Part shown: one piece after another, positions 2,697-24,969 of the stretch
Position numbering within the stretch: position 1 is the stretch's first letter
Layout of the letters: the number at the start of each line of letters is the position of its first letter
Made by a program: the position numbers and the translations under genes
Notes under the pieces: model-generated
Seen by the model: the letters and a program-made list of their open reading frames with translations, nothing else
Told to the model about the DNA's origin: nothing
Database searches by the model: none
IMG/VR virus record: IMGVR_UViG_3300043411_000952
Location: 10,194 to 74,193 of that record
DNA from: a virus
Length of the DNA stretch: 64,000 nucleotides
Strand: one strand, 5' to 3'

Positions 2697-3150
2697 GGGT
2701 AGTAATATCTGTGCTATAATCCAACACAAGTTGGCGCAGATACGTAAAATAGTGTAATGCGTATTCAAGAAAATAAACTAACACTAGTTACTCCCTCCCG
2801 AGGTTCTAACCCTCGGGAGGTTAGATAATTGCTCTTAAAGCGCCCTGAATCTCCTCACGGGTTCAGACGGTTACAAGGCCGAATGCCCAGCCTGGGCCGA
2901 CAGGCGAAGCTGCTCTGCCTCTTTGCAGAGAACGTTGAGTAAGAGCAATCTGGATCTGATATGACAGTCATACTTAGACTGAGCTAGTATATGGTCACTC
3001 TGCAATGATCATAGTATTAGCCTTATCCAGGAAACAACCCCCATCCATTAAGACATCAACCGCGCGGCTCAGAGCTGATCTGACATGGACCAAGTTGTAG
3101 GGAGGCGCGAATATTTACAGAGATGTAAATTATTCGCGCCTTTCTTTTAC
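2697..3150 (+). ncRNA. Putative ~450-nt structured non-coding RNA
   Basis: No ORF of 60 aa or more; bounded by promoter motif and terminator; many nested helices (2794-2803/2811-2820, 2828-2837/2940-2949, 2950-2955/3025-3030). Confidence 0.65.
3101..3150 (+). terminator. Intrinsic terminator
   Basis: AGGCGCGAATA / TATTCGCGCCT stem followed by TTCTTTT. Confidence 0.8.
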
Positions 3151-3267
3151 ATATTATGTAATATAAGGGTCTACCAAATAAGGACGACCTTGAGGCGAGA
3201 ACGTCCAGGCTCACACGCGAGCCGGGGCGGAAACCTCCGCTGAAACAACTGACTCTCTACCAAAAAA

Positions 3268-3522
3268 ATGAACTCTAATACTCCAGAAAGCCCGGCTCGT
3301 TGTGTGCAGCCTGCTTGTTCGGCCTTCTTGCGCACGATCAATGGCGATCTCTACACTAAGCCTGTCTTCACTGCCCTGGATGACTGCTATGAGCAGGGGC
3401 AAGCCGCAAGCTCACAGGGCTACCGCCGCGACCAAAATCCGTATCCCAAGGGCACCGCTCAGCGGGAATGGTGGGATGGCGGATACTGCAACGAAACCGA
3501 CGAACTAACTGGAGAAGCATGA
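3268..3522 (+). CDS. Rmf/CrpP-like small protein
   Basis: CYEQGQAA..G.....NPY......REWWDGGY resembles the ribosome modulation factor pattern. Confidence 0.55.
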   Translation: MNSNTPESPARCVQPACSAFLRTINGDLYTKPVFTALDDCYEQGQAASSQGYRRDQNPYPKGTAQREWWDGGYCNETDELTGEA

Positions 3523-3830
3523 GCACGGGAGAAATCATCATCAATGCAGTAATTCGCGCTGCCGCTGTCGAATCTGCTGTAATCACTGAGGGCAGAACCG
3601 TCTTTGTGTGGGCGACAAATGCCGCAGAGCAGATTGAAGCCGCGATTGCAGAGGCAGGCTACGAACTGAGGCCGAACATGATGTTACCTTCGCCTTTGAT
3701 GTCCCTTATATTCACTGGTCCTTTAGTAGTTTGCATACCCGCAGTATTCGGTAAACCTCCTGCTCTGAAACTTCCAAAGCTTTTAGCCTCAGGTATAGAA
3801 ACGCGTTCTGGGTTTAGTGTAGACTTTTGA
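3519..3830 (+). CDS. Hypothetical protein; 3' part reads antisense into the kinase-like gene
   Basis: ATG overlaps the previous stop (ATGA); composition changes near 3670. Confidence 0.45.
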   Translation: MSTGEIIINAVIRAAAVESAVITEGRTVFVWATNAAEQIEAAIAEAGYELRPNMMLPSPLMSLIFTGPLVVCIPAVFGKPPALKLPKLLASGIETRSGFSVDF

Positions 3831-4264
3831 AATCTCTGAACGAAATCTAGCCACTGTTTTTTATTACTGGAAGGTAGTGACAAGATTTCCTTCAATACAT
3901 TAGGTTTAGGAGGTGCCGCGTTTAATCTTGGAATTGCATAGCCTCTCCCACCTCTGATCGTAGACAGAATCTCCGGGAAAATGGACGAGGAAGAGAATAA
4001 GTTCTTTATGCTCTCTACTCTTTTTTCAGCTCTAGGTGATCCTTTTTGAGATATGAGCTTTAAGGCGGAAGGCCCGTGCTTTCCGGTAAAGCTTTCGTAA
4101 ACTTTACCTTCTCCGCCGCCGCCTAGTAGCTTTGGTTTGCCCTCTACATTTTTCAACAGCCTTGTTTTATTTGCCGGAAGACCTGCAGTTAATTTTTCTA
4201 TACTTTTAGGAGACAGTCCTTTAGCCAAAGCGCGAACCCAAGCTGGTGTCGCTTGCTTATTCAT
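3659..4264 (-). pseudogene. Protein-kinase-like ORF, apparently C-terminally truncated
   Basis: LGGGGEGKVY Gly loop, SALK lysine, IRDIKGEGNIM catalytic loop, then a stop with no DFG; likely start MNKQAT at 4264. Confidence 0.55.
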
Positions 4265-4324
4265 ACCACTAATTAAAGTTAATGTCTCTAGATTCACATA
4301 CATACAGTAAACCATTAAAACAAC

Positions 4325-4540
4325 ATGACAATTGTAAAAGCACGTATCACTGAACAACCTAAATCATTATTTGATCCTATGCCTGAGGTGTGGGTTACAT
4401 ACGACGACGGAGAAGAAGAGAAACTCTTTTCTTACTACCCTGACGAGATTTCGTTTGATGCTGATGAATTTATAGGTTTAACAAGGGGCGGCGCGTTCAA
4501 GCTTTACCACAAAAAAGACGTGGCGTATTTAAAGGCATAA
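4325..4540 (+). CDS. Conserved phage hypothetical protein
   Basis: 71 aa ORF with MPEVWV...LFSYYPDEISF...EFIGLT; abuts sbcD. Confidence 0.7.
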   Translation: MTIVKARITEQPKSLFDPMPEVWVTYDDGEEEKLFSYYPDEISFDADEFIGLTRGGAFKLYHKKDVAYLKA

Positions 4541-4541
4541 T

Positions 4542-5684
4542 ATGATTAAAATAATTCACACAGCCGATTGGCATTTACGCGATATGCAGTTTGGAAAGAC
4601 TGCGCGCGCTCAAGACTTTACTGATTCTGTTTTCCGTATCGTGGATATCGCAGTTCAGAATCAAGTTGATTATATTTTATGCGCTGGGGACATTCTGAAC
4701 TCTAAACGCCCTAGTAGCCGTAACATCGCGGATCTCATTCGTCTGAACCAAAAGCTTCTGACGAATAAAGTTAAGTTGTTCGTCATCACAGGCAACCACG
4801 ATAAATGTCATCCTTCGTGGATTAAGGTACTACAGGAAGAAATGCAGGAGAATGGGCAGTGCGCTATTTACGATATTGATTTCCAACTCTTCAGTATGAA
4901 AGCTAGAGATGGAAAAGAATATACAATCTACGGCGTACCTGATATGGCCCCGGATGATTTCCGGGAAAAGAGCGTAGATTTTCCTGAAGCTGACTTCATG
5001 ATGTTCCATGCCTTAATTAAGGACTTCGCCGCCTTTGACGCTGGAGATAAAGTCTTGAAAGTTGAAGACTTACCTACAGATAAGTATAAAGCTATACTAC
5101 TAGGTGATATTCACACGCATAAATACATCGATCTGGAAACATGCGTCGTAGGCTATCCCGGCTCTACCGAGTTGTGTTCGCGTAATGAGAGTACAGACAA
5201 GTATGTAACGCTATTCACACTACATGATAATGGTGAGCTACAAAGAGACTCTATTCCTCTTACATTAAATAAACCAATCATTGCTGAAGATATACGCACG
5301 GTTGATGAAGCCAACGACTTGCTTCTTAAAATTAATGAAGTTAAGGACGAGCATCCTACGATTCTTGTACGTAAAGATCCATCATTCACAGATCTCTATA
5401 TACGCATCGCGCGAATCGTAGATACTAGTAAGTGTATTATCAGGGTTACAAATTTACAGCAGGCTGGATTTAAACTTATTAATATTGTCAGTCGTAGAAC
5501 TGATAACCCTACAGGTAAACAACCTGTAGATTTTGTTTCGGACTATTTCCCTAATGGTTCTGATATATTTGAATTAGCCCAAGCCCTTTGTGATCCGCAG
5601 GCTGCTGCTCCTCACCTGATTGAAAGTTTCATAGATAAAAGACTATATGCGAATAAAAAAGCTACTGATAAAAAATTTGGGTAA
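4542..5684 (+). CDS. sbcD: SbcD/Mre11-like metallophosphoesterase nuclease
   Basis: HTADWH, AGD, GNHD and LGDIH motifs. Confidence 0.9.
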   Translation: MIKIIHTADWHLRDMQFGKTARAQDFTDSVFRIVDIAVQNQVDYILCAGDILNSKRPSSRNIADLIRLNQKLLTNKVKLFVITGNHDKCHPSWIKVLQEEMQENGQCAIYDIDFQLFSMKARDGKEYTIYGVPDMAPDDFREKSVDFPEADFMMFHALIKDFAAFDAGDKVLKVEDLPTDKYKAILLGDIHTHKYIDLETCVVGYPGSTELCSRNESTDKYVTLFTLHDNGELQRDSIPLTLNKPIIAEDIRTVDEANDLLLKINEVKDEHPTILVRKDPSFTDLYIRIARIVDTSKCIIRVTNLQQAGFKLINIVSRRTDNPTGKQPVDFVSDYFPNGSDIFELAQALCDPQAAAPHLIESFIDKRLYANKKATDKKFG

Positions 5685-8184
5685 ACATAGACATTTAGAG
5701 GCAACTCTAGATGGATCTGTTGTAGGATTGATGGGACCTAATGGTTCAGGTAAATCCACTATTCTTAAATTAATTCATTTTCTTGTTACTGGCTGGACAC
5801 CAGCTAAGGAAACACAAGAATCCTTTATTCGTAAGGTGGACCCGGAGATTGAGGCCGAGCCCGCCTGTGGTTCCGCTGAAATGGAATTCTACGCGCAAGG
5901 AAACACGTATAGAATTAGTCGAAAGATCGGATCTCCCTCCTCCAGAAAGCTCGTAAAGCTGGATGCTAAAGGAAAGGAAATCAAAGACGAAACATATACC
6001 AGCGCAGCAGAGATACAGGCTCTTTTAACTGAAATCCTTGGCGCTGACAAGTATGCTATTGATAACGCTGTGTTTCCTGAACAGGGTGCATTGGATAAAA
6101 TATTATTTGGGTCCCAGGCGGAGCGTGAAGAGTTGCTGGTAAAGCTACTCCTGCTAGGGCATATGCAGAAGGTGGCGGATGTAGCGGCAGGTAAAATCAA
6201 AATACTGGCCTCTGAGATTCAGGACTTCTCGACTTTGCATGATGAGCTACAGGCGACCAGAAATAGCGCAGAAGTAGAGCTCGCTACCGCCGAGGAGCAG
6301 CTGGTGCGTACTCGCAGTTATGCAGCAGAAATTAAACTATATGAAGATTGGGAACGCGCAGTTAATGAGTTAACATCTAATTCATCTCATCTGCTGAGCG
6401 CCAAAAATGCCGCCCGCATTAATGAAGATAAAGTAGCCGCTGTTCTGGAAGAGCAAACTACCAAGTTAGGGGTAGCTATAAACTCACCTGAGGAATTAGG
6501 TAATTGGGTTGATAAACTCAAAAATAAAATTAAGGGCGCGCATCAGACGGTAGCCGCGCTACAAGACACCAAAGGTAAGGCAGCCCAGTATAAAAGTATC
6601 GCTGAACGTATAGTTAATTATAATAATGATCTGTTACTTCTTAAAGCGGATTGTCCTGCGCCTGTAGACCCTAACTTGATTTCTAGCCTGGATAAAAAAA
6701 TCAGGGATCAGAACCTCCGGGAGATGTACCGGTTGGAAGTTCAGGAGGCTACAGTTAAAGGAAAGGAAACTAGGGATAGAGTTGATAGACTTGTAGAGAT
6801 AGTTAAGGAACTAACTGAAGATTTAAAACGTGTCGAGGACGAGGAACAAACACTATCTAACGAGAGAGCGCTGTTCAAAACTATCGTAGATACGTGTAAG
6901 CTAGCGTTGGATAATAACTGTACCGCTGACTGCCCGGTGTGCGGAGAGAGTGTTTCTCACGAAAAACTGAGATCCAGACTCGAGACATATAATGTCAAAC
7001 TATTAGAAGCCTCTAAGAAGTTGCACGACATTAGTACTAGCCATGCGCAGACGAGTAAGCAGATGCGTGACATGCAGCATGACCTAACTCAACGGCAGAC
7101 ATTACTATCTTTGTACATTAAAAAATACAAAGATAACAAAGCGCTACTTGATGCAGGCACAGATGAAGACGTACAAGTTTTTAGGGATCAGCTTACTAGT
7201 CTAAATCACGCCACGGCTAAACGCGCGTCCGATATTAAAAGCATAAATAAAATTGAATTTGAGATTAAAACATTAGAGTTTTCTATTCAAGGTTACACTG
7301 AAGAAGAAGTTAAAAGTTTCCATGAGTTAGATATTACCGCTTTGGATAAAGAGGTAACCGAGCTCAAAGATAAGGTCGAGCACTGGAGCTCTAAGCTGGA
7401 TGAGTTGTCTAAAACTTATATTAACATTCAACAACTTATCTCGGCCAGAGAAACGGAGATTAAACGCTCCAAGGAATTTGCTGCTGCATGTGAGGGCTTC
7501 GCTCTAAAAAGGGATGCAATCTTTGACTCTTTTCCTCCGCAACTAAAGAAATTAGTTGAGCAAGGGGGTGAGACAAAAGACACTCTCATAGAGAACAATA
7601 AATTATATAATCAACTAGAAGCCAAAGCAGCGCAGCTTAAAGTCCAGGCCAACAGCATACGTAAACGGTTACGTGAAATTGAGGACAAAATTAAATTGGA
7701 TGAAGATAAACGCGCGGTGATACAGGAATTACAGCGCGTGGTGCATGCGTTCTCTAGACAGGGTATTCCCATGGCTTATGTACAACATAAGTTTGATAGC
7801 CTTGTCAGCATGACTCAGGATAACTTGGAAATTATGGATGCGAACTTCGCTATTATTCCGCATCCCTCTAAACCAGTTAGTCTGCAGTTCTACCGCGTAG
7901 ACGAGCCGGGGCAAGTATTGTTCGACCACGACAAACTATCTGGCGGTCAGAAGGTAAGGTTATCCATCGCCTTCCTTTTAGCTGTTCAGCAATTAGTAAT
8001 CCCGGAATTAGGCTTCCTAGTTTTGGATGAACCTTCTACGCATTTGGATGAGGAGGCTAGAGAAAATTTGAAAGAGCTCTTGCTAAATCTAAATCAACAG
8101 CTAGAAAGTACAGACACTCAAATTCTCGTTTGCGACCACGCAAGAGAGCTTGAACCTGCTTTTGTAAATGTAATTCAATTATGA
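5647..8184 (+). CDS. sbcC: SbcC/Rad50-like SMC ATPase
   Basis: Walker A GPNGSGKST, coiled coil with CPVC zinc hook, LSGGQ signature, LDEPSTHLD Walker B. Confidence 0.93.
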   Translation: MRIKKLLIKNLGKHRHLEATLDGSVVGLMGPNGSGKSTILKLIHFLVTGWTPAKETQESFIRKVDPEIEAEPACGSAEMEFYAQGNTYRISRKIGSPSSRKLVKLDAKGKEIKDETYTSAAEIQALLTEILGADKYAIDNAVFPEQGALDKILFGSQAEREELLVKLLLLGHMQKVADVAAGKIKILASEIQDFSTLHDELQATRNSAEVELATAEEQLVRTRSYAAEIKLYEDWERAVNELTSNSSHLLSAKNAARINEDKVAAVLEEQTTKLGVAINSPEELGNWVDKLKNKIKGAHQTVAALQDTKGKAAQYKSIAERIVNYNNDLLLLKADCPAPVDPNLISSLDKKIRDQNLREMYRLEVQEATVKGKETRDRVDRLVEIVKELTEDLKRVEDEEQTLSNERALFKTIVDTCKLALDNNCTADCPVCGESVSHEKLRSRLETYNVKLLEASKKLHDISTSHAQTSKQMRDMQHDLTQRQTLLSLYIKKYKDNKALLDAGTDEDVQVFRDQLTSLNHATAKRASDIKSINKIEFEIKTLEFSIQGYTEEEVKSFHELDITALDKEVTELKDKVEHWSSKLDELSKTYINIQQLISARETEIKRSKEFAAACEGFALKRDAIFDSFPPQLKKLVEQGGETKDTLIENNKLYNQLEAKAAQLKVQANSIRKRLREIEDKIKLDEDKRAVIQELQRVVHAFSRQGIPMAYVQHKFDSLVSMTQDNLEIMDANFAIIPHPSKPVSLQFYRVDEPGQVLFDHDKLSGGQKVRLSIAFLLAVQQLVIPELGFLVLDEPSTHLDEEARENLKELLLNLNQQLESTDTQILVCDHARELEPAFVNVIQL

Positions 8185-9002: not shown

Positions 9003-10445
9003 ATGAGTAAAGAAGTTCACCTCATGTGGGATGATTCTGTACTGACTATTGCCCCTTCCAGTCCTGCATTGGAAAAGTTTCTGACTTATAGGGAAAAGAA
9101 GTTGGCTCAGGATCCGAATTGCCCATGGAAAAAAGTTACTAAGGTAACTGTAAATCCTTTATACAAAGTCATAAATCAGCAGAATGGATACAATGTTATC
9201 CAGACGATGCAGGGTATGTGGTTGAAAGTAAAAACATTTTTAGAGGATAAAGGCTACGACGTAAAGTTCTACGACATGCGTTTAGCTTTCCCTAAACCTC
9301 GCTTAGACCTGATGTGCGGATTTAGATTTAAACAAGAAGAACTCCTTACTTCCTTTTTAAGTACAAATTGTAGCGGACTATTAGGTGCGCCCACTCGGTA
9401 TGGGAAGACGGTCCTAATCAAAAATACTATACGTGCGTATCCAAATGTACACACAGTAGTCACTGCTCCCGGTGCAGATTTGGTAAAACAACTGTATGAA
9501 GACATTAAAGAAGCGTTACCTCATAGGGAGGTAAAACTAATAGGCGCAGGTTCTACTAAGAGTCCATGCGATGACATTAATGTCGTAAGCATGGATAGCT
9601 TGCATAAGTGCGATGCCGCCGCTTGTAGATTATTATTAGTTGATGAGCCACATGCGTGTGTCACAGACAGTCGTTTACCTGAGCTAGCCAAATTCGATAA
9701 GGCACGTCGTATTGGGTTCGGTGCTACTCTTAAAGGTAGATTTGATCAGCGCGATATTCTTATTGAAGCGCTGCTTGGTCCGGTTATTGCAGAGCGCACA
9801 TTCCAAGAAGCTGTAGCTGAAGGTGCTGTGTGCCCTCTTATTGTGTACATGGTCGTGATGCCTTTAGCAGGTAATTCGGATGACCGTGATCGCGCATACA
9901 AGACGCATCTATTTAAAGGTGAGCGCGTAGCTAAGGCTGTGCGCTGGATTTGTCATGAGCTTCTCCCTCAAGACTGGCAGACCTTGCTCTTTATTAAAAA
10001 TGAAGACCAGGCTGAATACTTTCTAGATTGGGTTGGGCAGGACGGTACTATCGCCATGGCCAAACGCATGACCAAGAAGGAGCGAGAGGAGTTAATGGAA
10101 AGAATGCGTGGCGCTGAAATCAAACGCTGCCTGGCTAGTGAAATATATGCACAGGGTGTGACCTTCAACCATGTGCGCGCTCTTATTAATTTAAGTGGCG
10201 GAGGCGCTAACACATCCACAATTCAAAAACCTGGCAGGCTTGCGGAAGTACGGCCAGATAAGAAGTGTGGTGTTGTGTTTGATTTCTTCTTCACTCCGGG
10301 AACAGGTAGGGGGAACGGGATTCAAGCTTTATATCGCGAGTCCCTGGCTCGAGTTAAAGCATACACAGAAAAAGGTTACGAAATTATTTTCGTAGACGGG
10401 TATAATGAACTCGAGTCCTCGTTTAAATCCAAAGCCATATCTTGA
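9003..10445 (+). CDS. Superfamily 2 helicase (UvsW/Rad25-like)
   Basis: APTRYGKT, VDEPH, GAT, QGV and QKPGRL motifs. Confidence 0.88.
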   Translation: MSKEVHLMWDDSVLTIAPSSPALEKFLTYREKKLAQDPNCPWKKVTKVTVNPLYKVINQQNGYNVIQTMQGMWLKVKTFLEDKGYDVKFYDMRLAFPKPRLDLMCGFRFKQEELLTSFLSTNCSGLLGAPTRYGKTVLIKNTIRAYPNVHTVVTAPGADLVKQLYEDIKEALPHREVKLIGAGSTKSPCDDINVVSMDSLHKCDAAACRLLLVDEPHACVTDSRLPELAKFDKARRIGFGATLKGRFDQRDILIEALLGPVIAERTFQEAVAEGAVCPLIVYMVVMPLAGNSDDRDRAYKTHLFKGERVAKAVRWICHELLPQDWQTLLFIKNEDQAEYFLDWVGQDGTIAMAKRMTKKEREELMERMRGAEIKRCLASEIYAQGVTFNHVRALINLSGGGANTSTIQKPGRLAEVRPDKKCGVVFDFFFTPGTGRGNGIQALYRESLARVKAYTEKGYEIIFVDGYNELESSFKSKAIS

Positions 10446-16818: not shown

Positions 16819-17017
16819 GCTTACAACCAGGCTGGCTCATCTTGAGAAATTAAAAGATGAGCCAGTCATGGAAGATTTTGATGCTGGGCTTCGCGCCGCG
16901 CGTTACGACGAGTATGTATTTATAAAAGAGGTATTGAAAGTATATGGAGAATCAAACGAAGGACAAGGTAGTACCTGTTCCAGACTACACTCTCCCGCCG
17001 TTACAGTATCTCGATAA
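16796..17017 (+). CDS. Hypothetical protein
   Basis: 73 aa ORF overlapping both neighbours. Confidence 0.45.
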   Translation: MDKKLNLKLTTRLAHLEKLKDEPVMEDFDAGLRAARYDEYVFIKEVLKVYGESNEGQGSTCSRLHSPAVTVSR

Positions 17018-20000
17018 GACAGGGACTGTTCGCGGGCATAATGGTGTTACATTTGTTTCTGGGGAAGGCATAAAGCCAGCCGATATAATGTTTATTACTT
17101 CCTGCGTATCCCCGCAGGAGGCTAGTAAATTTCTTAAAGGCAGAGACGGAGGGCAGGGCGTCCGGGTGCAGCCTCGTTATCTGAGGTCAGACGCCGGTGT
17201 TATGTTCTCTGATATTTTTAATCAGGAGGGTATCGATCTTTATAAGTGCTACTACACAGCGCTGGTCAAATGGTTGCTGCCCAAGAATGAACGCATTAAG
17301 ATACCGAAAGATGTAGTGGCTTGGGCGCTTCCCTCACTAGAAGAAGAGATAGCTCTCGTAAGCCCTAAGATCATTGTATGTATCGGCAAACCTGTCTTTG
17401 ATCTTCTAGCAAATATAAAGCTGTCTTTGAGTGACGCCAAAAGCGGTTGGTTTTATAGCGAGAAGTACAACGCTAAAATATATCTCCTCGATGATACATA
17501 TAAGCTTGTCTCTAACCCGGAGTACATTGGAAAGTTCCAGGTAGAAGCTAGAGAAATTAATAGGATGTATAAGGAGATATGTAATGTATCCACCGGACGC
17601 ATTCCTTTAGAGTATGAGACAATTACTAATTCCTCTGATCTTAAAAGAGTAGTTAGCAATTGGAAACAGAATAATTTTGATGTAATTAGTGTGGACTGTG
17701 AGTGGTCTGGTAACAACCATATAGACGGTAAATTACGCAGCACGCAATTTTGCTGGGCCCCCGGTAAGGCATGTTATGTCCGCTGGATGGATGACAAGGG
17801 TAATTACACCTTTGATATTTCGTATAAAGAAGCAGGCGCTATACTTTCAGAGTGGTTAGATTTAGAAGATGTAAAATACATCGGGCATCACTTTGCTGCT
17901 GACGCCCCATGGTTGCATCATGTACTAGGACTTAATTGGTATGAGAAGTGTATTTTCGATACCGAGTTTGCGCAACAAACTGCTAATGAGGCCGAGGACC
18001 TTTCCTTAGAGCGAATAGCCCTGAAGTACACGGATTTAGGAAGGTATGACCTAGATCTTGTGTTGTGGGTTAAACAGAACAAGGCATTAATGGTGGATGG
18101 TGGCTACGGCGCTATTCCGGATGAGATTCTTATACCTTATGCGTGTTTACGCCAAGAAAGTTTAGTACAGCTAGGCGATGGATCTTGGTGTAAAATTAAA
18201 GATCTAGTTAACAGTAAATATGCAGGAGAAGTTAAGGCTGTATTAAATGGTAAAGTACAGAATTGCAAAGTTACTAACTGGTACAAAGTCAATACCAGAC
18301 AAAAAGTGTGGAAGAGGTTAGTAACTAAATATGCACAGAGAGGAAAGCATGGTTACTTAGGTCCGGTATTAACCCCTGATCATAAGGTAATAACGCAGAG
18401 AGGTAAGGTAGCAGTGCAGGATATTATACCTGGAAAGGATAGTATTTGTACGTCTTACAATACTTTTACGTCTACACAATTATCTGTATTTTTAGGTTGT
18501 CTACTAGGCGATGGCGGCATCGCGAGGAGAAACAAAGCGCACGCTGGTTTAGTTATGAGCCAGTGTGAAAAACGCGCTGATTATTTGAAGTGGAAAGTTA
18601 ATGTACTTTTTGGTGACCCTGAAAATGTAGAATCAAAAGGTTCTTTATGCGCTTATAGATCCAAGTACACTCCATACATTGCCGCGTTATCGGATACATG
18701 GGAGAGAAAAGAGGCCTTGGCGCATAGTAAAAGAAAATTATTAATTACTGAAAATTTACTAGACCATCTTCAAGCGCCGGGAATAGCTGTCTGGTATCAA
18801 GATGATGGTAACCTAACTTGCGGTAACGAGGTACGTATTACTATTTACCATTTACAAGAGCAGGAGCTTGCCGCCTTACGTTCTTGGTTTAGAAGCAATA
18901 TGGGTGTGTATGTTAAATATAGAAAAAATCAGAATCATATATGCTTTTCAGTTAAAGATTCTGTTGTTTTTTTAAATTATATTAAAGATTATATACATAA
19001 TGATTGCGGATATAAAACCAATGTTCCGTATAATTTGAAGGTCAACGCGCATATACCAGGTCCTTTGTACTTTGAACCTATTGTTGGTATTAGTGACGTA
19101 CCGGTCAAACCTTGTAGCGGTGATGGTATTCGTTACTGCTTAGCTGTAGATAAAGCGGAGAACTTCTTAACTAAGTCTGGTTTTGTTTCTAACTGCAAAG
19201 ACGTAGATACTGTCTTTAGAGCATGGCCAATTATTCAGCGGAGTCTGCAGGCTCAAGATCTTCTAGACTATTATAATAATATATTTCATCCGTTTGTTAC
19301 GGATGTATTTGTGAGTTTCGCCTTGGTTGGCCTTCCTATGGATGTAGCCATGATGGACGAGCTTAGAGTTTTATACACGTTTGCTAGAGACAAAATGGAA
19401 GTTATCCTGCGTGAGGAGATTCATGTAGAGGCTAAGAACTTTGTTTTAATGGCATTTGCAACTAGGTTACCTCCTGAGCTTGCTACTGAAAAATATTTAG
19501 AGTTCATTTCTTTAATAGCTAATTCAGAGCATATGGAGGCCTGGGCGGTGCTTAAAGGATCCGCTAAAAAGCCTGATGATGTACCTAAACTTAAACATAT
19601 ATTCGACCACTTTATTGACAGCGCGCATTTCAATATTAGATCTTCAACACAGTTAAAACGCTGGTTATTTAATGTTAAGTGTTACGAGCCTGTAAAGTCG
19701 ACTGGTAATAAGGAGAAAGGGCTACCTGCAACATCATGGGAAAAGATTAAGTCCATGCCGCCAGAGGCCCAGAAGAATTATAATCCTGCTGTTGATAAAC
19801 AAACGCTGCAGATTTTATCTGAACAGAATAATGACGCGCTGCTTCGTAGGTTATTACAATTGAACGCTGTAGGTAATATATGTAAAGCTTTCCTTAAAGA
19901 GGCCGACATAGATGCTGACGGTAACGTTGTAAAAGAGAACGGGCTACATTTTTACCTATGCAGCGATAATCGTGTGCATGGGCAAATGAGTACCACAGAA

Positions 20001-23000
20001 ACCGGAAGACCCCGGTGCGTCCACGGTGACACTTTAATACGTTGTTTTGATGGTTTTAAACGTATAAGAGATATTAAAATTGGTGACCTTGTCTGGACAC
20101 ATTTAAACAGATGGAGAAAAGTAGAGGATACATATATTAAGCCAGCGGCCCCCATGTATAAGGTAAGTTTTGAAAATGGGGAAGTACTGTTATGTACTGA
20201 GGAACATTTACTATTGACCGAAGCTGGAAAGTGGATATCTGTTAGAGATGTCTGTTTGCAAAAAGCATTTAAACAATCCGGAACTGAGGAAGAAAGTTGT
20301 TTCTCTTTACCGAGAGTCCTTGAGCACCGCCGAGCAAGTAGCGGAGATTTTGAATATAACTCCGCATACTACTTATCGAATACTTCGTCTAGAGTTAGGC
20401 GAGGAAGAATTCAAAAAGCTCAAAGCGATAAAATACTCGAGCTCAAAGCTGGGAGAGAAGAATCCTTGGAAAGGGAAGAGGGGGGAAGAGGCCGCGACCT
20501 GGAAGGGGGATTGCGACGATGGTTACGGTTATTTAACACGCCTAATAGATGGCCAACGTTACTTCGTACATCGTATAGTCATGGCAGAGGCGCTGGGTAT
20601 ACATCCCTCGCAGTTGCCGGATCATCTAGCTGTGCATCATATAGATCAGGATCGGAAAAACAACGCACTAGACAACTTAGCGCTCTGCACCACATCCGGG
20701 CACAGAGGTATCCACGAAAGATACAAACATACCGATCAGGAATTAAAATTAAAGGGGTTGTCCCTTGCGGAAGCTATCCAGTATATGACATCTCCGTAGA
20801 GGAGGATCATTCCTACGAGGCGTCCGGTTGTTTTTCGCACAATTCTTGGAAACCAAACTCGTTGAATTGGCCTAGCTATGTTAACTCCATGATTTCTAAT
20901 GGTATAGCTGGTCTTTTTGGTAAACTAAAAGAACGCGGAGAATTACCAGAAGAGTTTGAGAAGTTTATTATTAAAAATGATAAGGGGGAATACAAGAGTG
21001 AGGTACCTTCTATACGCAGTTGCGTTAAAGCTCCTGAAGGTTGGTGCTTTGTAGAGTCCGATTATCAGACTGCGGAAATTAGAGGACTAGCCTTTGTATC
21101 AGGGGATAAAAACCTAATTGATATTGTTTGTAACCCCGATTTAAATTTTGCGGTTACTAAAGATGATAAAAAAGTTCGGCTGGCTTTTCCTCCTGAAGTG
21201 TTTCCTCCTTCCACACAGGAAGAGTATAAACACCTCCTTATTTCCCCGGATGATCCATCCTTAATAAGAAAAGATGACGGTTCTTTGAAACATCCTAAAC
21301 AGGACCTACATTGGTCTTTGGCTGAGATGGTTCATATTAAACCTAGAGAAGTACTTGACGAAAAGAAAGACCGTGGTGCTGCTAAGGTAGGTAACTTCAG
21401 CTGCGTTAATAAATATACAAAAATACGTACAGAAAAAGGTGTTCTAAGCATAGAAGACGCGATAATTTATGGTTGTACTTATGTATGGGATGGTTTAGAT
21501 ATGGTGTCTTATGATTCCATACAATACCAAGGAAATAGATTCACAATTAATTACCAAGGACTGTCCGCAACCCCAGACCATGTTGTCTGGCTCTCAAGTG
21601 GAGAAAAGTGTTGTTTCGGAGAAGCTGCCTTGCGAGGTCTCAGTATTAAATCGTATAGCGGCTTTGAATTGGATACGGCTGGTAGCAGACACAAGAACAA
21701 TAGAACGCGCAAGAAAAGGCATCATATTTATGGTGCGGTGTCAAAGGTGTCAGAAAACAACGCGCAGGTGGTTACACAACGTGGAGGCGGGCAAAGGTCT
21801 AAAATGTCGATGCCTGTCTCCTTTGCGATACAACGACCCACGCGCGCGCACACTAGGCGCAAGGTATCAAGCTATGCGTCAAAGGTGTTTTCTAGACAGC
21901 CATGTCAGCAGCTACAATTACAAGGGGCGAGGCATAAAACTAATATTCAAAAGTCGCAGAGAATTTATTTTATGGGCGCTTCAAAGATGGCCGGATACAG
22001 ACTTCAAAGGTTTGGATTTCGACAGAATAAACAACGATGGCCACTACTCGAAGGGCAACCTACGTTTGGTCACAAGGCAAGAAAATTTAAGAAATACGAG
22101 AGCTTCTCGCTGGTCCTACCGCGTACGCGCCGAGAAGTTATTAAAAGACAACCCAGGTGTGAGTGTCTCTATGAAAACGTTATGGGGCATGCTGCAAATG
22201 GGGTATTCGGAAGAAGAAATACTTCTAAGGATAAAGTCTGGAGAAATAAAGAGCCGGAAGGCAATATTAGCAAATGCGAAAGTATTGCAAGCCAGGAATT
22301 TAATAAGATTAAATCCGGGCTTGGTTGTAGGAGAGAAACATATAATGAGTCTATATCGGAAAGGATTAACCGATCAGGATATAATAGAACATGTGGCGAA
22401 GCACGAAGAGTTAACTTTGCGTATTCGTCAGGCGAAGCAGCGCAGAGAAAACTCTTTGCAGCGATCGGCTCGTATAGGTATAGGCTTCGCGGCCAGTACT
22501 ACAAGAAAGATGATACGAGAAGGTCTATCCGACGAGCAATTGCTGGCGGCGTGGGAAAAATCGTATGTAAAGTCAGAATCAATCAGGCAGAAGATAGAGA
22601 GGCTTGGCTTGAAGCTCAGCGTATCTACTACGCACAGGTTGATGAAGCAGGGCATGTCGGACGCGCAGTTAGAAGAATATTCGAAGAAAAGGGTTTTAAG
22701 CTCACAAAAGAGCCAGTATACGATATAATAAACGCAGGACCAAGGCATAGATTTGTTGCCAGTGGCTTGCTTATATCTAATTCGGCATACGGCGCGTCCG
22801 CCTCAACCCTGGAACGCAAAATTGAACAGGATACAGGTAAGAAGCCAGAAGAAGGTACAGGTCAGCGGTTATTGAAGGCGCTTGAAAAACGTCAGCCAGT
22901 AGCACAAGACTTTTTAATTAAAATGGAACGTGTACCAGAGAAGCCCGGATATTACCGCGCAGCATCTGGAAGAATTCGTCATTTCGCTTCCCATGATCCA

Positions 23001-23387
23001 AAATACCTGGATGACATTGACGAGCATTTGACTATGGGCTTGTTTAAGTCTATGGGTAGAGAAGCTCGCAATTTCCCGATGCAGGAGAGTGTAGCTGCCA
23101 CCGCTGCGCGAGCAGGTAAATGGCTGCTAGATGCTTACATCAAGTTAAATATGCAGGCTAGACCATTGATTATTTTATATGATTCCGTTGTTACTCTTTG
23201 TCCACTTGAAGAACGATTTAAGGTTGCGCAATTGCACCAGCTCTTTATGACGGATGAGAACACATGGGAGTACCATGGAAGAAAAATGTCGTACCCTATC
23301 GACAGCGACTTCGTATATCGTTGGTCGGCTAAACCTGATAAAGATGATAAAAAATTGCTAGAAGATAAAACTTACAAAACCAACTGA
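16944..23387 (+). CDS. polA: Family A DNA polymerase precursor: UDG-like N-terminal domain, 3'-5' exonuclease, polymerase, three inteins (mature ~1061 aa)
   Basis: ExoI VDCE, ExoIII YA|CKD, TETGR, motif A DYQTAEIR, motif B R.AAK.GNFS|SAYG, NFPMQ, motif C YDS; N-terminal YYTALVK...EEEI..VSPKIIVCIGK. Confidence 0.93.
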   Translation: MENQTKDKVVPVPDYTLPPLQYLDKTGTVRGHNGVTFVSGEGIKPADIMFITSCVSPQEASKFLKGRDGGQGVRVQPRYLRSDAGVMFSDIFNQEGIDLYKCYYTALVKWLLPKNERIKIPKDVVAWALPSLEEEIALVSPKIIVCIGKPVFDLLANIKLSLSDAKSGWFYSEKYNAKIYLLDDTYKLVSNPEYIGKFQVEAREINRMYKEICNVSTGRIPLEYETITNSSDLKRVVSNWKQNNFDVISVDCEWSGNNHIDGKLRSTQFCWAPGKACYVRWMDDKGNYTFDISYKEAGAILSEWLDLEDVKYIGHHFAADAPWLHHVLGLNWYEKCIFDTEFAQQTANEAEDLSLERIALKYTDLGRYDLDLVLWVKQNKALMVDGGYGAIPDEILIPYACLRQESLVQLGDGSWCKIKDLVNSKYAGEVKAVLNGKVQNCKVTNWYKVNTRQKVWKRLVTKYAQRGKHGYLGPVLTPDHKVITQRGKVAVQDIIPGKDSICTSYNTFTSTQLSVFLGCLLGDGGIARRNKAHAGLVMSQCEKRADYLKWKVNVLFGDPENVESKGSLCAYRSKYTPYIAALSDTWERKEALAHSKRKLLITENLLDHLQAPGIAVWYQDDGNLTCGNEVRITIYHLQEQELAALRSWFRSNMGVYVKYRKNQNHICFSVKDSVVFLNYIKDYIHNDCGYKTNVPYNLKVNAHIPGPLYFEPIVGISDVPVKPCSGDGIRYCLAVDKAENFLTKSGFVSNCKDVDTVFRAWPIIQRSLQAQDLLDYYNNIFHPFVTDVFVSFALVGLPMDVAMMDELRVLYTFARDKMEVILREEIHVEAKNFVLMAFATRLPPELATEKYLEFISLIANSEHMEAWAVLKGSAKKPDDVPKLKHIFDHFIDSAHFNIRSSTQLKRWLFNVKCYEPVKSTGNKEKGLPATSWEKIKSMPPEAQKNYNPAVDKQTLQILSEQNNDALLRRLLQLNAVGNICKAFLKEADIDADGNVVKENGLHFYLCSDNRVHGQMSTTETGRPRCVHGDTLIRCFDGFKRIRDIKIGDLVWTHLNRWRKVEDTYIKPAAPMYKVSFENGEVLLCTEEHLLLTEAGKWISVRDVCLQKAFKQSGTEEESCFSLPRVLEHRRASSGDFEYNSAYYLSNTSSRVRRGRIQKAQSDKILELKAGREESLEREEGGRGRDLEGGLRRWLRLFNTPNRWPTLLRTSYSHGRGAGYTSLAVAGSSSCASYRSGSEKQRTRQLSALHHIRAQRYPRKIQTYRSGIKIKGVVPCGSYPVYDISVEEDHSYEASGCFSHNSWKPNSLNWPSYVNSMISNGIAGLFGKLKERGELPEEFEKFIIKNDKGEYKSEVPSIRSCVKAPEGWCFVESDYQTAEIRGLAFVSGDKNLIDIVCNPDLNFAVTKDDKKVRLAFPPEVFPPSTQEEYKHLLISPDDPSLIRKDDGSLKHPKQDLHWSLAEMVHIKPREVLDEKKDRGAAKVGNFSCVNKYTKIRTEKGVLSIEDAIIYGCTYVWDGLDMVSYDSIQYQGNRFTINYQGLSATPDHVVWLSSGEKCCFGEAALRGLSIKSYSGFELDTAGSRHKNNRTRKKRHHIYGAVSKVSENNAQVVTQRGGGQRSKMSMPVSFAIQRPTRAHTRRKVSSYASKVFSRQPCQQLQLQGARHKTNIQKSQRIYFMGASKMAGYRLQRFGFRQNKQRWPLLEGQPTFGHKARKFKKYESFSLVLPRTRREVIKRQPRCECLYENVMGHAANGVFGRRNTSKDKVWRNKEPEGNISKCESIASQEFNKIKSGLGCRRETYNESISERINRSGYNRTCGEARRVNFAYSSGEAAQRKLFAAIGSYRYRLRGQYYKKDDTRRSIRRAIAGGVGKIVCKVRINQAEDREAWLEAQRIYYAQVDEAGHVGRAVRRIFEEKGFKLTKEPVYDIINAGPRHRFVASGLLISNSAYGASASTLERKIEQDTGKKPEEGTGQRLLKALEKRQPVAQDFLIKMERVPEKPGYYRAASGRIRHFASHDPKYLDDIDEHLTMGLFKSMGREARNFPMQESVAATAARAGKWLLDAYIKLNMQARPLIILYDSVVTLCPLEERFKVAQLHQLFMTDENTWEYHGRKMSYPIDSDFVYRWSAKPDKDDKKLLEDKTYKTN
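18144..19193 (+). mobile_element. Intein 1 of DNA polymerase (350 aa) with in-frame LAGLIDADG endonuclease
   Basis: Starts CLRQESLV, block B LTPDHKV, LGCLLGDG and WYQDDG, ends FVSN followed by Cys; sits in ExoIII. Confidence 0.92.
20016..20843 (+). mobile_element. Intein 2 of DNA polymerase (276 aa), endonuclease out of frame
   Basis: Starts CVHGDTLI, block B CTEEH, block F VYDISVEEDHSY, ends SHN followed by Ser. Confidence 0.92.
20248..20799 (+). CDS. HNH endonuclease (HTH + NUMOD-like + HNH) nested in +1 frame inside intein 2
   Basis: GEKNPWKG, VHRIVMAEALG, VHHIDQDRKNNALDNLALCT..GH..IH. Confidence 0.85.
   Translation: MSVCKKHLNNPELRKKVVSLYRESLSTAEQVAEILNITPHTTYRILRLELGEEEFKKLKAIKYSSSKLGEKNPWKGKRGEEAATWKGDCDDGYGYLTRLIDGQRYFVHRIVMAEALGIHPSQLPDHLAVHHIDQDRKNNALDNLALCTTSGHRGIHERYKHTDQELKLKGLSLAEAIQYMTSP
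21402..22781 (+). mobile_element. Intein 3 of DNA polymerase (460 aa), endonuclease out of frame
   Basis: Starts CVNKYTKI, block B ATPDHVV, block F VYDIINAGPRHRF, ends ISN followed by Ser; sits in motif B. Confidence 0.9.
21511..22728 (+). CDS. HNH-family endonuclease with C-terminal tandem helical repeats, nested in +1 frame inside intein 3 (true start probably TTG 21664 or ATG 21730)
   Basis: Cys pairs, YQAMRQRC...Y.GRGI, DFDRINNDGHYSKGNLRLVTRQENLRN, then four G(Y/L/M)(S/T)(D/E)xx(I/L) repeats. Confidence 0.82.
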   Translation: MIPYNTKEIDSQLITKDCPQPQTMLSGSQVEKSVVSEKLPCEVSVLNRIAALNWIRLVADTRTIERARKGIIFMVRCQRCQKTTRRWLHNVEAGKGLKCRCLSPLRYNDPRARTLGARYQAMRQRCFLDSHVSSYNYKGRGIKLIFKSRREFILWALQRWPDTDFKGLDFDRINNDGHYSKGNLRLVTRQENLRNTRASRWSYRVRAEKLLKDNPGVSVSMKTLWGMLQMGYSEEEILLRIKSGEIKSRKAILANAKVLQARNLIRLNPGLVVGEKHIMSLYRKGLTDQDIIEHVAKHEELTLRIRQAKQRRENSLQRSARIGIGFAASTTRKMIREGLSDEQLLAAWEKSYVKSESIRQKIERLGLKLSVSTTHRLMKQGMSDAQLEEYSKKRVLSSQKSQYTI

Positions 23388-23388
23388 C

Positions 23389-24969
23389 ATGTCATTCGTT
23401 CCTACTGATTATTCTGAAATTCAAAGACAACTGAAAGCTGAAAAAGAAAACAGCTACTGGGGTGGTTATTACAAGCCAGGTATTTATGGCGGCACACCCA
23501 CACAAAAGAAAATGTTCTCCGGTAGAATTTTACCGGCGTTTAATTATGCCTTATCCCAGGCTGACGCGGATTTCCAGTCTTCCTGGATGCCGTATCGTAA
23601 TGCAGATAATATCGACGCGGAAACTAATCAGCCGGTACTCAGCGCTTTCTTCGCTGTTGTGGCTGCTTACTCCTGGTTCGGTAATAAACAAGTATCGTTC
23701 CTGAGCCCTTCAACATTGCGATTCACTCACAGTATTTCGCGCGGCCCTGAGCTCATCGATCCTGTGCAGGATATTCGTAACTTCGCCAAGAAGCATGACG
23801 ATCCAGCTATACGCGCTTTAACTGAACGCCCTGAAAATAAGAAAGACGCTAAAATTGTCATTCCTTATCCTCAGCGTCGTTATGTGTTTAACTTCTTTGG
23901 TACTGCAGGTACAGACCGTAATGTTAGAAATTATTTAGTCGATGTATCTCAGAAGGCCTTCGAAGACCTAGCCGGTAAGCTGTCCGAGTGGCGTCCCGCG
24001 CATGAGCAGACTATTGATCCTAACTGGCCTCATTATTTATATGGTGATATTACTGATCCGCAAAGCGGTGTTATGGTTGAGACTACCCCCATTCCCTCGA
24101 CCCCACAGCCTTTCAACGGCTTTGTGTTTACATCTGGATCTCATAAGTCGCTAAAAGGTGTGCGTCAGTATCCCGTCCCTCCAGAAGCTATGACTGGACG
24201 TTATCACCTTTATGGTGACAGCTCCGCCTTTAAAGTTATGGGCGCGCAGGAAATTATTGAGTTCCTCGTAGAGGACGGCGCAATTCCTTATCATTTGATC
24301 GAGGAGGTGTGTAGTAACTACGCACATATTCCGCCAAGCCCAAGTAGAGCCAAGGTATTTCCTGGTTCCAATTCGGAAGAAGACTTAGATTCATTCCGCC
24401 CTCCAGTGGCCAATCCGTTTGCGCAGAAACCCGCAGCCGTGCAGCAGGCCGCTCCTTATAGGCCCCCTGCACCTCCAGTGCCTGTCCAACAAGAGACCCC
24501 TCCATGGGAAACTCCAGCAACCCTTTCGCCTCCGCCGCCAGCCATGGTAGCGCCTGAAGAAAGGTTCTGGGTGTCCATGAATGGTAATACTGAAGATGAG
24601 CCTATCACTCGGGCAGAGGTGCAAAGCCTCATCAGTACGCATACGACTAGTACGTTTATGATCTGCGGTACAGGCACAAAAAGTGTTTGGCAGACTCCTG
24701 CCGAGGCTGGATTCGTGGTACAGGCTAACAAGCCTAAACCTCCAGCCCTACCGCAGCCAGCCCCCGCTCCTTCATCACTACCTAGCATAACCGCCACACC
24801 GCCCCCAGCGGTAGTCGTGCCAGTTGCTCCGCCTTCTACCTCCATTCTCACGGATGAGGAGAAAGTGGCGTATGATGAATTAAAAGCTAAGTTTGACGCG
24901 GGCACACTCCCAACTTCAGAGTTGATGAAGTTTGTGCAGTTCGTCAACCGTATCGAGAAGAAGGCTTAA
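23389..24969 (+). CDS. Hypothetical replication protein with Pro-rich linkers (possibly ssDNA-binding) and a GYF_2-like domain
   Basis: Position between pol and recA; N-terminal globular part; FWVSMNG...EP...W.TPAE between Pro-rich tracts. Confidence 0.5.
   Translation: MSFVPTDYSEIQRQLKAEKENSYWGGYYKPGIYGGTPTQKKMFSGRILPAFNYALSQADADFQSSWMPYRNADNIDAETNQPVLSAFFAVVAAYSWFGNKQVSFLSPSTLRFTHSISRGPELIDPVQDIRNFAKKHDDPAIRALTERPENKKDAKIVIPYPQRRYVFNFFGTAGTDRNVRNYLVDVSQKAFEDLAGKLSEWRPAHEQTIDPNWPHYLYGDITDPQSGVMVETTPIPSTPQPFNGFVFTSGSHKSLKGVRQYPVPPEAMTGRYHLYGDSSAFKVMGAQEIIEFLVEDGAIPYHLIEEVCSNYAHIPPSPSRAKVFPGSNSEEDLDSFRPPVANPFAQKPAAVQQAAPYRPPAPPVPVQQETPPWETPATLSPPPPAMVAPEERFWVSMNGNTEDEPITRAEVQSLISTHTTSTFMICGTGTKSVWQTPAEAGFVVQANKPKPPALPQPAPAPSSLPSITATPPPAVVVPVAPPSTSILTDEEKVAYDELKAKFDAGTLPTSELMKFVQFVNRIEKKA

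Follow-up and report, generated by a model that had tools for sequence, protein, structure and literature searches.

A DNA polymerase gene on IMG/VR virus record IMGVR_UViG_3300043411_000952 (74 kb; CheckV completeness about 41%) contains, in its motif B, an intein that very probably carries a separate homing endonuclease gene, which lies over the middle of the intein in the +1 frame while the host frame is kept open by selection. A stretch of 64,000 nucleotides of this record (positions 10,194 to 74,193; hereafter, the window) was analyzed, and the intein in question is the third of the three found in the polymerase gene (intein 3). Its parts, and those of the open reading frame (ORF) nested within it, are listed below in window coordinates, where dN/dS stands for the ratio of nonsynonymous to synonymous substitution rates and pLDDT for AlphaFold's predicted local distance difference test score:

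21384..21401, + strand: N-extein junction KVGNFS, the first half of polymerase motif B, joined directly to SAYG in the intein-free alleles of relatives L003 and L006
21402..22781, + strand: intein 3, 460 amino acids in the host frame, with an exact in-frame presence/absence polymorphism among relatives
21402..21656, + strand: N-terminal splicing domain (intein residues 1-85; TPDH of block B at 21570-21581), its homology extending over 9 of 9 aligned inteins
21657..22697, + strand: host-frame read-through linker (intein residues 86-432), Arg/Lys-rich, with no predicted fold and only stop-free
22698..22781, + strand: C-terminal splicing domain (blocks F and G, VYDI...ISN), with invariant residues and a host-frame position-3 substitution pattern
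22782..22793, + strand: C-extein junction SAYG, the second half of motif B, its Ser being the +1 nucleophile judging from the sequence
21511..22728, + strand: nested +1 gene, 405 amino acids, a putative homing endonuclease (ORF, PHROG HNH matches, dN/dS, AlphaFold, homologues)
21511..21630, + strand: nested residues 1-40, an unstructured leader overlapping the intein N-domain and block B (pLDDT 32-35)
21631..21825, + strand: nested residues 41-105, made up of a helix, a beta sheet and the Zn ribbon C77xxC80 ... C99xC101 (AlphaFold, sequence)
21829..22104, + strand: nested residues 107-198, PacI-like beta-beta-alpha-metal core (invariant columns, structure match)
22108..22722, + strand: nested residues 200-404, four helical repeats, likely helix-turn-helix and DNA-binding (AlphaFold helices)

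The nested ORF starts inside the N-terminal splicing domain and overlaps block F with its last 9 codons, and over its 405 codons the host frame does not meet a single stop, versus about 50 expected from the 0.123 stops per codon that ordinary genes of the window carry in that offset, which makes the chance estimate of 6e-8 given in a preliminary description of this DNA far too mild. Synonymous shuffles of the nested ORF contained a mean of 22 host-frame stops when its own codons were used and 38 with the codon usage of the phage, and none of the 5000 shuffles had fewer than 10 under either null. The avoidance can be followed down to single sites: wherever a nested codon precedes one starting with AA, AG or GA, a T at its third position would create a host-frame stop, and T occupies 0 of the 122 such at-risk sites, as against third-position frequencies of 27% in the rest of the nested ORF and 41% at comparable places of ordinary genes. 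Every host-frame stop is thus removable without altering the nuclease, NNT and NNC being synonymous in all cases. Host-frame stops are likewise absent from seven further +1 copies (six copies of the family in relatives plus the unrelated intein 2) and from two +2 copies, where the expectation is lower, and all nine lie below their synonymous-shuffle expectation. The stop avoidance noticed earlier is, in short, real: codon choice under selection keeps the host frame open.

Which of the two frames is constrained depends on the place within the element. Nine related polymerase loci are present in IMG/VR (L003-L011), and dN/dS was calculated by the Nei-Gojobori method from four related contigs. 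Within the exteins and the splicing ends of the intein, pairwise differences accumulate at host position 3 (0.39-0.48 versus 0.07-0.16 at positions 1 and 2), while within the insert they peak at host position 1, i.e., nested position 3 (0.43), and reach their minimum at nested position 2 (0.18). The dN/dS of the insert is 0.10-0.18 in the nested frame and 1.4-2.0 in the host frame, inflated host-frame values being a known artefact of an unconstrained overlapped frame. The substitution pattern of the first 40 nested codons follows the host frame. Amino-acid constraint is present in only one frame per place, namely, the host frame at the splicing ends and, in the middle, the nested frame, with openness being all that is demanded of the host frame there; of the "dual coding" previously claimed for this intein, the two open frames have held up, whereas amino-acid constraint in both frames at one place has not. 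Structure prediction for both frames turned out as the preliminary description had anticipated, with the host-frame insert being unfolded (pLDDT about 25 over residues 86-403) and the +1 protein folded (mean pLDDT 79, 17-sequence alignment). The insert itself (residues 86-432, 347 codons) contains 21.6% Arg and Lys, versus 11.1% in the N-extein, and it had no family match in Pfam, NCBIfam and PHROG searches.

Judging from its homologies, the nested gene encodes a conserved nuclease of the HNH superfamily, which would presumably be active on intein-less polymerase alleles. Its product matches the PHROG HNH families phrog_374 (E 1.3e-18) and phrog_3377 (E 6.3e-17), a third HNH family (E 2.1e-9) and a PHROG "restriction endonuclease" family (E 2.6e-11), with no Pfam or NCBIfam model scoring above threshold. 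The ORF end at 22728, the motifs quoted in the preliminary description, the two Cys pairs (77-80 and 99-101) and the four repeats (with cores at nested residues 231, 285, 338 and 381) are all present. Invariant residues of the core are R125, C126, Y137, R140, G141, D171, R172, N175, G177, Y179, N183 and N195, and a VIA-align comparison of the modelled residues 107-198 had the PacI-DNA complex (3m7k_A) as its best meaningful match, with a middling score (Z 6.7, root-mean-square deviation 2.4, 78 residues, 18% identity). PacI is an HNH-type enzyme in which Asp and Asn hold the metal and Tyr, not His, acts as the general base (PMC4081073); the invariant D171, N183, N195, Y137 and Y179 would fit a site of this type, a likeness that is suggestive, not proven. 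A Foldseek search of the whole nuclease model against PDB returned nothing at E up to 0.001, and against PDB sequences the alignment of the nuclease had nothing beyond weak matches to helical, GerE and other three-helix proteins. Homologues of the nested protein amount to 12 metagenome proteins and 227 viral-contig relatives. The 74-kb record has no second copy of the nuclease, and this genome has thus yielded no free-standing donor.

The surrounding intein appears to be a class-1 intein placed in motif B. It starts with CVNKYT, has the block B motif TPDH, ends with ISN followed by Ser and lies within KVGNFS/SAYG (slashes mark junctions here and below), all of which agrees with the boundaries, motifs and Arg/Lys-rich stop-free filler reported in the preliminary description. 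This identification is made because Cys1 (9 of 9 aligned inteins), T57 and H60 of block B (T57-P-D-H60), N460 and the Ser at +1 are invariant in relatives, because the element is present in some alleles and precisely absent from others in an essential motif, because its ends are under selection and because its N-domain is homologous to those of eight other inteins, including the RefSeq-annotated intein of Salmonella phage vB_SenS-Ent3. Towards the C-terminus, V439-N444 and G446-R448 are invariant as well; the penultimate residue is Ser in intein 3 and His in the Gram-positive phage copies, this His being common and non-essential. The best match of an N-domain profile against PDB was the N fragment of the Nanoarchaeum NEQ068 split intein, a weak one (E 0.039), and a profile of the whole intein had no match among PDB sequences. 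As the essential motif B is interrupted and both ends of the intein are under host-frame purifying selection, splicing is to be expected.

Independent initiation seems to be the likeliest route to the nuclease, with a separate translation from ATG 21511 being deduced from three features: the ATG is conserved in the copies of L004, L005, L007 and L008, a stop closes the +1 frame 1-4 codons before it in all copies, and the Gram-positive phage copies have a Shine-Dalgarno sequence (AAGGAGG or GAGAGG) 9 bases before their nested ATG. The host residues lying over the nested ATG differ (Tyr-Asp versus His-Glu), though the ATG itself is conserved. A Shine-Dalgarno-like motif is seen at only about 6 of the 37 clear gene starts in the window, where upstream regions are AT-rich, which suggests that the host makes little use of Shine-Dalgarno pairing.

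The layout did not arise in assembly. One contig of a groundwater run contains the stretch in full, and three wastewater runs contain it at 95-99% identity, with no indel inside the intein, so that independent runs dispose of the possibility, raised in the preliminary description, that the open frame was created during assembly. None of the runs containing the stretch is recorded as RNA; several wastewater libraries among them are labelled RNA-Seq and are probably DNA. In runs X3, X7 and X8, five changes between 21626 and 21761 are host-silent and alter the nested N-terminal module, one of them from Cys to Tyr, the numbers being too small to interpret.

The alleles of the related loci bear on the mobility of the element. 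All three intein sites are empty in L003, L006 and L009-L011, and KVGNFSSAYG is uninterrupted in L003 and L006, whereas L004, L005 and L008 hold a 405-residue intein at exactly the same codon, with a +1 ORF of 352-353 codons. In L007, a different allele of 319 residues is found one codon upstream (NF/C...N/SSAYG; 5556-6512), which contains a 266-codon +1 nuclease ORF and whose splicing domain is nearer to the Gram-positive phage inteins, indicating that the same motif has been invaded independently. At 90-95% extein identity, alleles may be empty (L003, L006) or filled (L004, L005), i.e., intein presence does not track extein similarity. Between L004 and L005, the number of synonymous substitutions per site (dS) is 1.36 in the extein and 0.18-0.57 in the intein, the 5' half of which is 91-100% identical, compared with 76-85% for most of the upstream extein and 88% just before the intein. 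The copy in the window is a mosaic with respect to that of L004, being about 50% identical in its 5' part and mostly 70-91% in its 3' repeats, and its helix and Zn-ribbon module (about 55 codons, 21620-21825) is absent from L004, L005, L008 and two metagenome proteins. These patterns fit homing and recombination among diverged phages.

If this arrangement functions as its parts suggest, ribosomes in the polymerase frame would traverse about 347 codons of unconstrained, basic and unfolded linker, after which the splicing halves (residues 1-85 and 433-460) would associate, excise the 460-residue insert and rejoin KVGNFS to SAYG. Ribosomes starting at an internal ATG, most likely that at 21511 in the N-terminal splicing domain, would make the 405-residue nuclease; by cleaving the empty site in polymerase alleles that lack the intein, this enzyme would have the intein copied in by repair. 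In the +1 register, the T of every host-frame stop falls on a third position of the nested frame, where NNT to NNC is always silent, and the host frame stays open because selection has removed all such T's.

Several results weigh against this reading. Neither the whole host frame of intein 3 nor its N- and C-terminal pieces are matched by any Pfam or NCBIfam intein model, and AlphaFold, from an alignment of only 5 sequences, modelled the intein frame poorly, the splicing ends included. On the side of the nuclease, Pfam HNH_3 stays below threshold (13.6 bits versus a cut-off of 24.8, E 0.055, C-terminal half only), and HNH's canonical first His is missing, with no conserved His at the canonical place, which is why the probable catalytic mechanism is borrowed from PacI. 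ATG 21511 has no Shine-Dalgarno sequence before it (such sequences being rare at the genes of this phage anyway), and a scan of 21100-22900 for sigma-70-type promoters, which does not cover phage-specific ones, gave 4 sites versus 2.9 expected; as these are no commoner than chance, an internal promoter is not supported. Furthermore, among the 23 differences with the best support in close wastewater variants, 14 alter the amino-acid sequence of the nested product, several of these within the N-terminal module, and selection on the window's own nuclease copy may therefore be relaxed. This last point leads to the explanation that the layout is as described, with the nuclease of this particular copy being a decaying relic from a late stage of the homing cycle, the intein only vertically inherited and the +1 ORF no longer used, for which the five host-synonymous differences within the N-terminal module and the loss of the Zn-ribbon module from the L004, L005 and L008 copies might be adduced as well. 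We consider it unlikely, since the ORF is unbroken over its 405 codons and has preserved all residues invariant in the family, its dN/dS versus relatives is 0.10-0.18, empty alleles coexist with filled ones, so that targets exist, and the list of variants is small and partial (53 further differences fall outside of it).

The missing ribosome-binding site and promoter before the nested ATG of this phage could also be accommodated by programmed +1 frameshifting from the polymerase frame, which would deliver the nuclease as an N-extein-intein-nuclease fusion. Against such a fusion, the +1 frame has a stop 1-4 codons before the conserved ATG in the window, L004, L005, L007 and L008; a slippery site was not observed, nested residues 1-40 lack both structure and constraint, and the Shine-Dalgarno sequence of the Gram-positive phage copies is strong, all of which makes frameshifting very improbable. 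Still less credible, to the point of being negligible, is the removal of the insert as RNA, which would make it a group I or II intron encoding a homing endonuclease, with the openness of the host frame either incidental or created in assembly. A group I intron does reside elsewhere in the same gene of relative L008, and the Rfam search that detects it found no match in 19900-22900 at E up to 1; moreover, the host frame is open, against the roughly 50 stops expected, in all family members, the ends of the insert carry intein motifs under host-frame purifying selection, and contigs from other studies, one of which holds the stretch whole, have no indel in the intein. The reading of intein 3 as an intein with a separate +1 homing endonuclease gene thus remains by far the most probable one.

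The host gene and its other two inteins are as follows:

16944..23387, + strand: precursor of 2147 amino acids combining UDG-like, 3'-5' exonuclease and family-A DNA polymerase domains (ORF; Pfam UDG, DNA_pol_A_exo1, DNA_pol_A)
18144-19193, + strand: intein 1, with an in-frame LAGLIDADG_2 domain, splitting the exonuclease motif YA/CKDVD
20016-20843, + strand: intein 2, with a nested +1 ORF (20248-20799) for a helix-turn-helix and HNH_3 nuclease (Pfam E 3.9e-10)

Nearly all genes of the window are on the + strand, and the polymerase ORF is open over its full length (16944..23387), with each of the three inteins interrupting a conserved motif. Without them, the polymerase would be 1061 amino acids long, which agrees with the 1063-codon open frame of intein-free relatives. 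Intein 1 is canonical, and inteins 2 and 3 are overprinted, so both types of intein occur in one gene. The nested nucleases of inteins 2 and 3 both lie in the +1 frame and, as previously noted, are unlike each other, with no detectable similarity (BLASTP E 0.75); because the nucleases are unrelated and relatives hold intein 3 without intein 2, the two inteins appear to be separate acquisitions. Intein 2 has 0 host-frame stops versus 10.7 expected from shuffles, T at 0 of its 54 at-risk sites, and no counterpart in any of the nine related polymerase loci (0/9). In L008, the polymerase is split into ORFs 2713..4824 and 5046..7073 by an ORF-less group I intron (4710-4939; RF00028, 89.4 bits, E 1.5e-23) in the TGRPR/SWKPN motif, which is the site of intein 2 in the window, so that in related phages an intron and an intein share one conserved site.

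As for the spread of the family, a scan of viral contigs for close relatives with the single nested protein as the query found none, nor did a nucleotide search of GenBank phages with 21000-23400 give a match; an alignment-based scan of IMG/VR produced the 227 relatives mentioned above, the best 80 of which were surveyed, a sample biased toward the query. Among these 80, the nuclease is nested in the +1 frame in 66 and in the +2 frame in 2, free-standing in 12 and in frame with the intein in 0, and all 68 nested ones adjoin the same intein N-domain (E 1e-23 to 1e-43). The junctions vary, comprising several motif B variants, the DnaB-like ...PDVV/C...HN/CIDYAD and others. The same N-domain and +1 ORF are seen at other junctions in, e.g., L035, L043, L044, L051 and L078, namely, ...PDVV/C...HN/C(I/V)DYAD, which looks like a DnaB-type helicase motif, and ...SQ(V/I)E/C...SN/CR.... 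Distances between the intein N-domains correlate with those between the nuclease cores (Mantel r 0.73, 0 of 2000 permutations), which would fit a composite unit and could partly reflect shared host phylogeny. As the +1 register and the intein family are common to 66 of the 80 and the distances correlate, overprinting in this nuclease-intein family was apparently inherited, not re-invented; out-of-frame nesting had been proposed earlier as a recurring strategy that hides genes from annotation, and while the gene is indeed missed by annotation, its recurrence within this family is not one of repeated invention. The nested genes found are homing nucleases, and the further suggestion that such inteins could carry other cargo found nothing in its favour.

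Searching GenBank by tblastn with the nuclease revealed relatives under "DNA polymerase" features, nested in the +1 frame in Gardnerella phage vB_Gva_AB1 and Streptococcus Javan prophages and in the +2 frame in Salmonella Jerseyvirus phages and EBPR siphovirus 2, the latter two of which show that the offset shared by inteins 2 and 3 is not a rule. The nested gene is unannotated in 4 of the 4 GenBank records examined. The polymerase intein of vB_SenS-Ent3 (NC_024204.1; L013:2366-3109) is annotated by RefSeq as "encoding splicing domains" only, and it holds an unannotated 247-codon +2 ORF of the same nuclease family (E 6e-13 to the window protein). About 147 Salmonella phage records match the nuclease family by tblastn, most of the listed rows falling under DNA polymerase features.

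The layout, put forward as a novelty in the preliminary description, had been published before (PMC4422536; bioRxiv 10.1101/2025.01.02.630785); it is already known and common in phages, and intein 3 is a further example of it. Out-of-frame or antisense endonuclease genes in inteins are credited to Gorbalenya 1998 in bioRxiv 10.64898/2026.09.14.751524 and 10.1101/2025.01.02.630785. An out-of-frame HNH gene in the large-terminase intein of brucellaphages (Tb, Pr and others) was stated in 2015 (PMC4422536); there, as here, an HNH-type gene lies out of frame in an intein of an essential phage gene, with the host frame reading through, but the host is a terminase and the nuclease is described as a Zn-ribbon HNH, whereas that of the window has a PacI-like core without the canonical first His, four helical repeats and a polymerase as its host. 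Work of the Gogarten laboratory from 2025-26 comprises frame-3 Endo VII-like genes in actinophage inteins, a +2 LAGLIDADG gene in DnaX and hidden HNH genes in methylases. The actinophage inteins resemble intein 3 in their host-frame splicing domains, unfoldable middle, unannotated same-strand nuclease in another frame and signs of continued transfer, and differ in the nuclease (Endo VII-like, frame 3) and the hosts (Pol III alpha, terminase, minor capsid protein and ThyX). The cyanobacterial DnaX intein with its +2 LAGLIDADG endonuclease (Phillips et al., bioRxiv 10.64898/2026.09.14.751524) has the same combination of a low dN/dS in the nuclease frame and an inflated one in the host frame over the overlap, albeit with a cellular host, a LAGLIDADG enzyme and the +2 offset.

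In the ShiLan domain/Pacc40 HNH arrangement of mycobacteriophage methylases (PMC11855218), an out-of-frame HNH gene likewise leaves the host ORF open, and the Pacc40 nuclease was also matched to PacI by its authors; splicing domains are lacking there and the insert stays in the mature protein, whereas here it is flanked by intein ends. Fractured genes (Dassa et al. 2009, PMC2677866) share with intein 3 an endonuclease gene of the free-standing type that occupies the canonical endonuclease position between intein halves, its ends overlapping the intein, but have the host gene in two ORFs and splice in trans, while the polymerase of the window is one continuous 2147-codon ORF, unlike a split-intein or fractured-gene layout. 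R.PacI itself (3m7k; PMC4081073) has a Zn-bound beta-beta-alpha-metal site with Asp, Asn and Tyr, residues of which the nested family has invariant examples, but it is a 142-residue homodimeric restriction enzyme without helical repeats. In the limited literature set consulted, nothing was found on this PacI-like family in polymerase inteins or on the hidden gene of the Jerseyvirus intein.

Intein 3 adds a clean and statistically strong case to the small published set of inteins with a separate overlapping endonuclease gene, and it does so within a single polymerase gene that holds two overprinted inteins and one canonical one. The nuclease-intein family is large and unannotated in well-known phages (Jerseyvirus, Streptococcus and Gardnerella phages), where the inteins are labelled as "splicing domains only" or are not labelled at all, and the mobility of such inteins will be misjudged by annotation pipelines or surveys that call them endonuclease-less. 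A simple diagnostic for a selected open host frame is the at-risk-site test, i.e., whether T is absent before codons starting with AA, AG or GA. Tentatively, and with somewhat more doubt than confidence, we suggest that the intein and its overprinted nuclease might be an old composite mobile unit residing at many sites, in which the +1 register has been kept because NNT to NNC changes silence the stops. If this were true, +1 overprinting would become a rule, predictable and open to searches, by which homing-endonuclease genes hidden in inteins regarded as "mini" or "degenerate" could be found.

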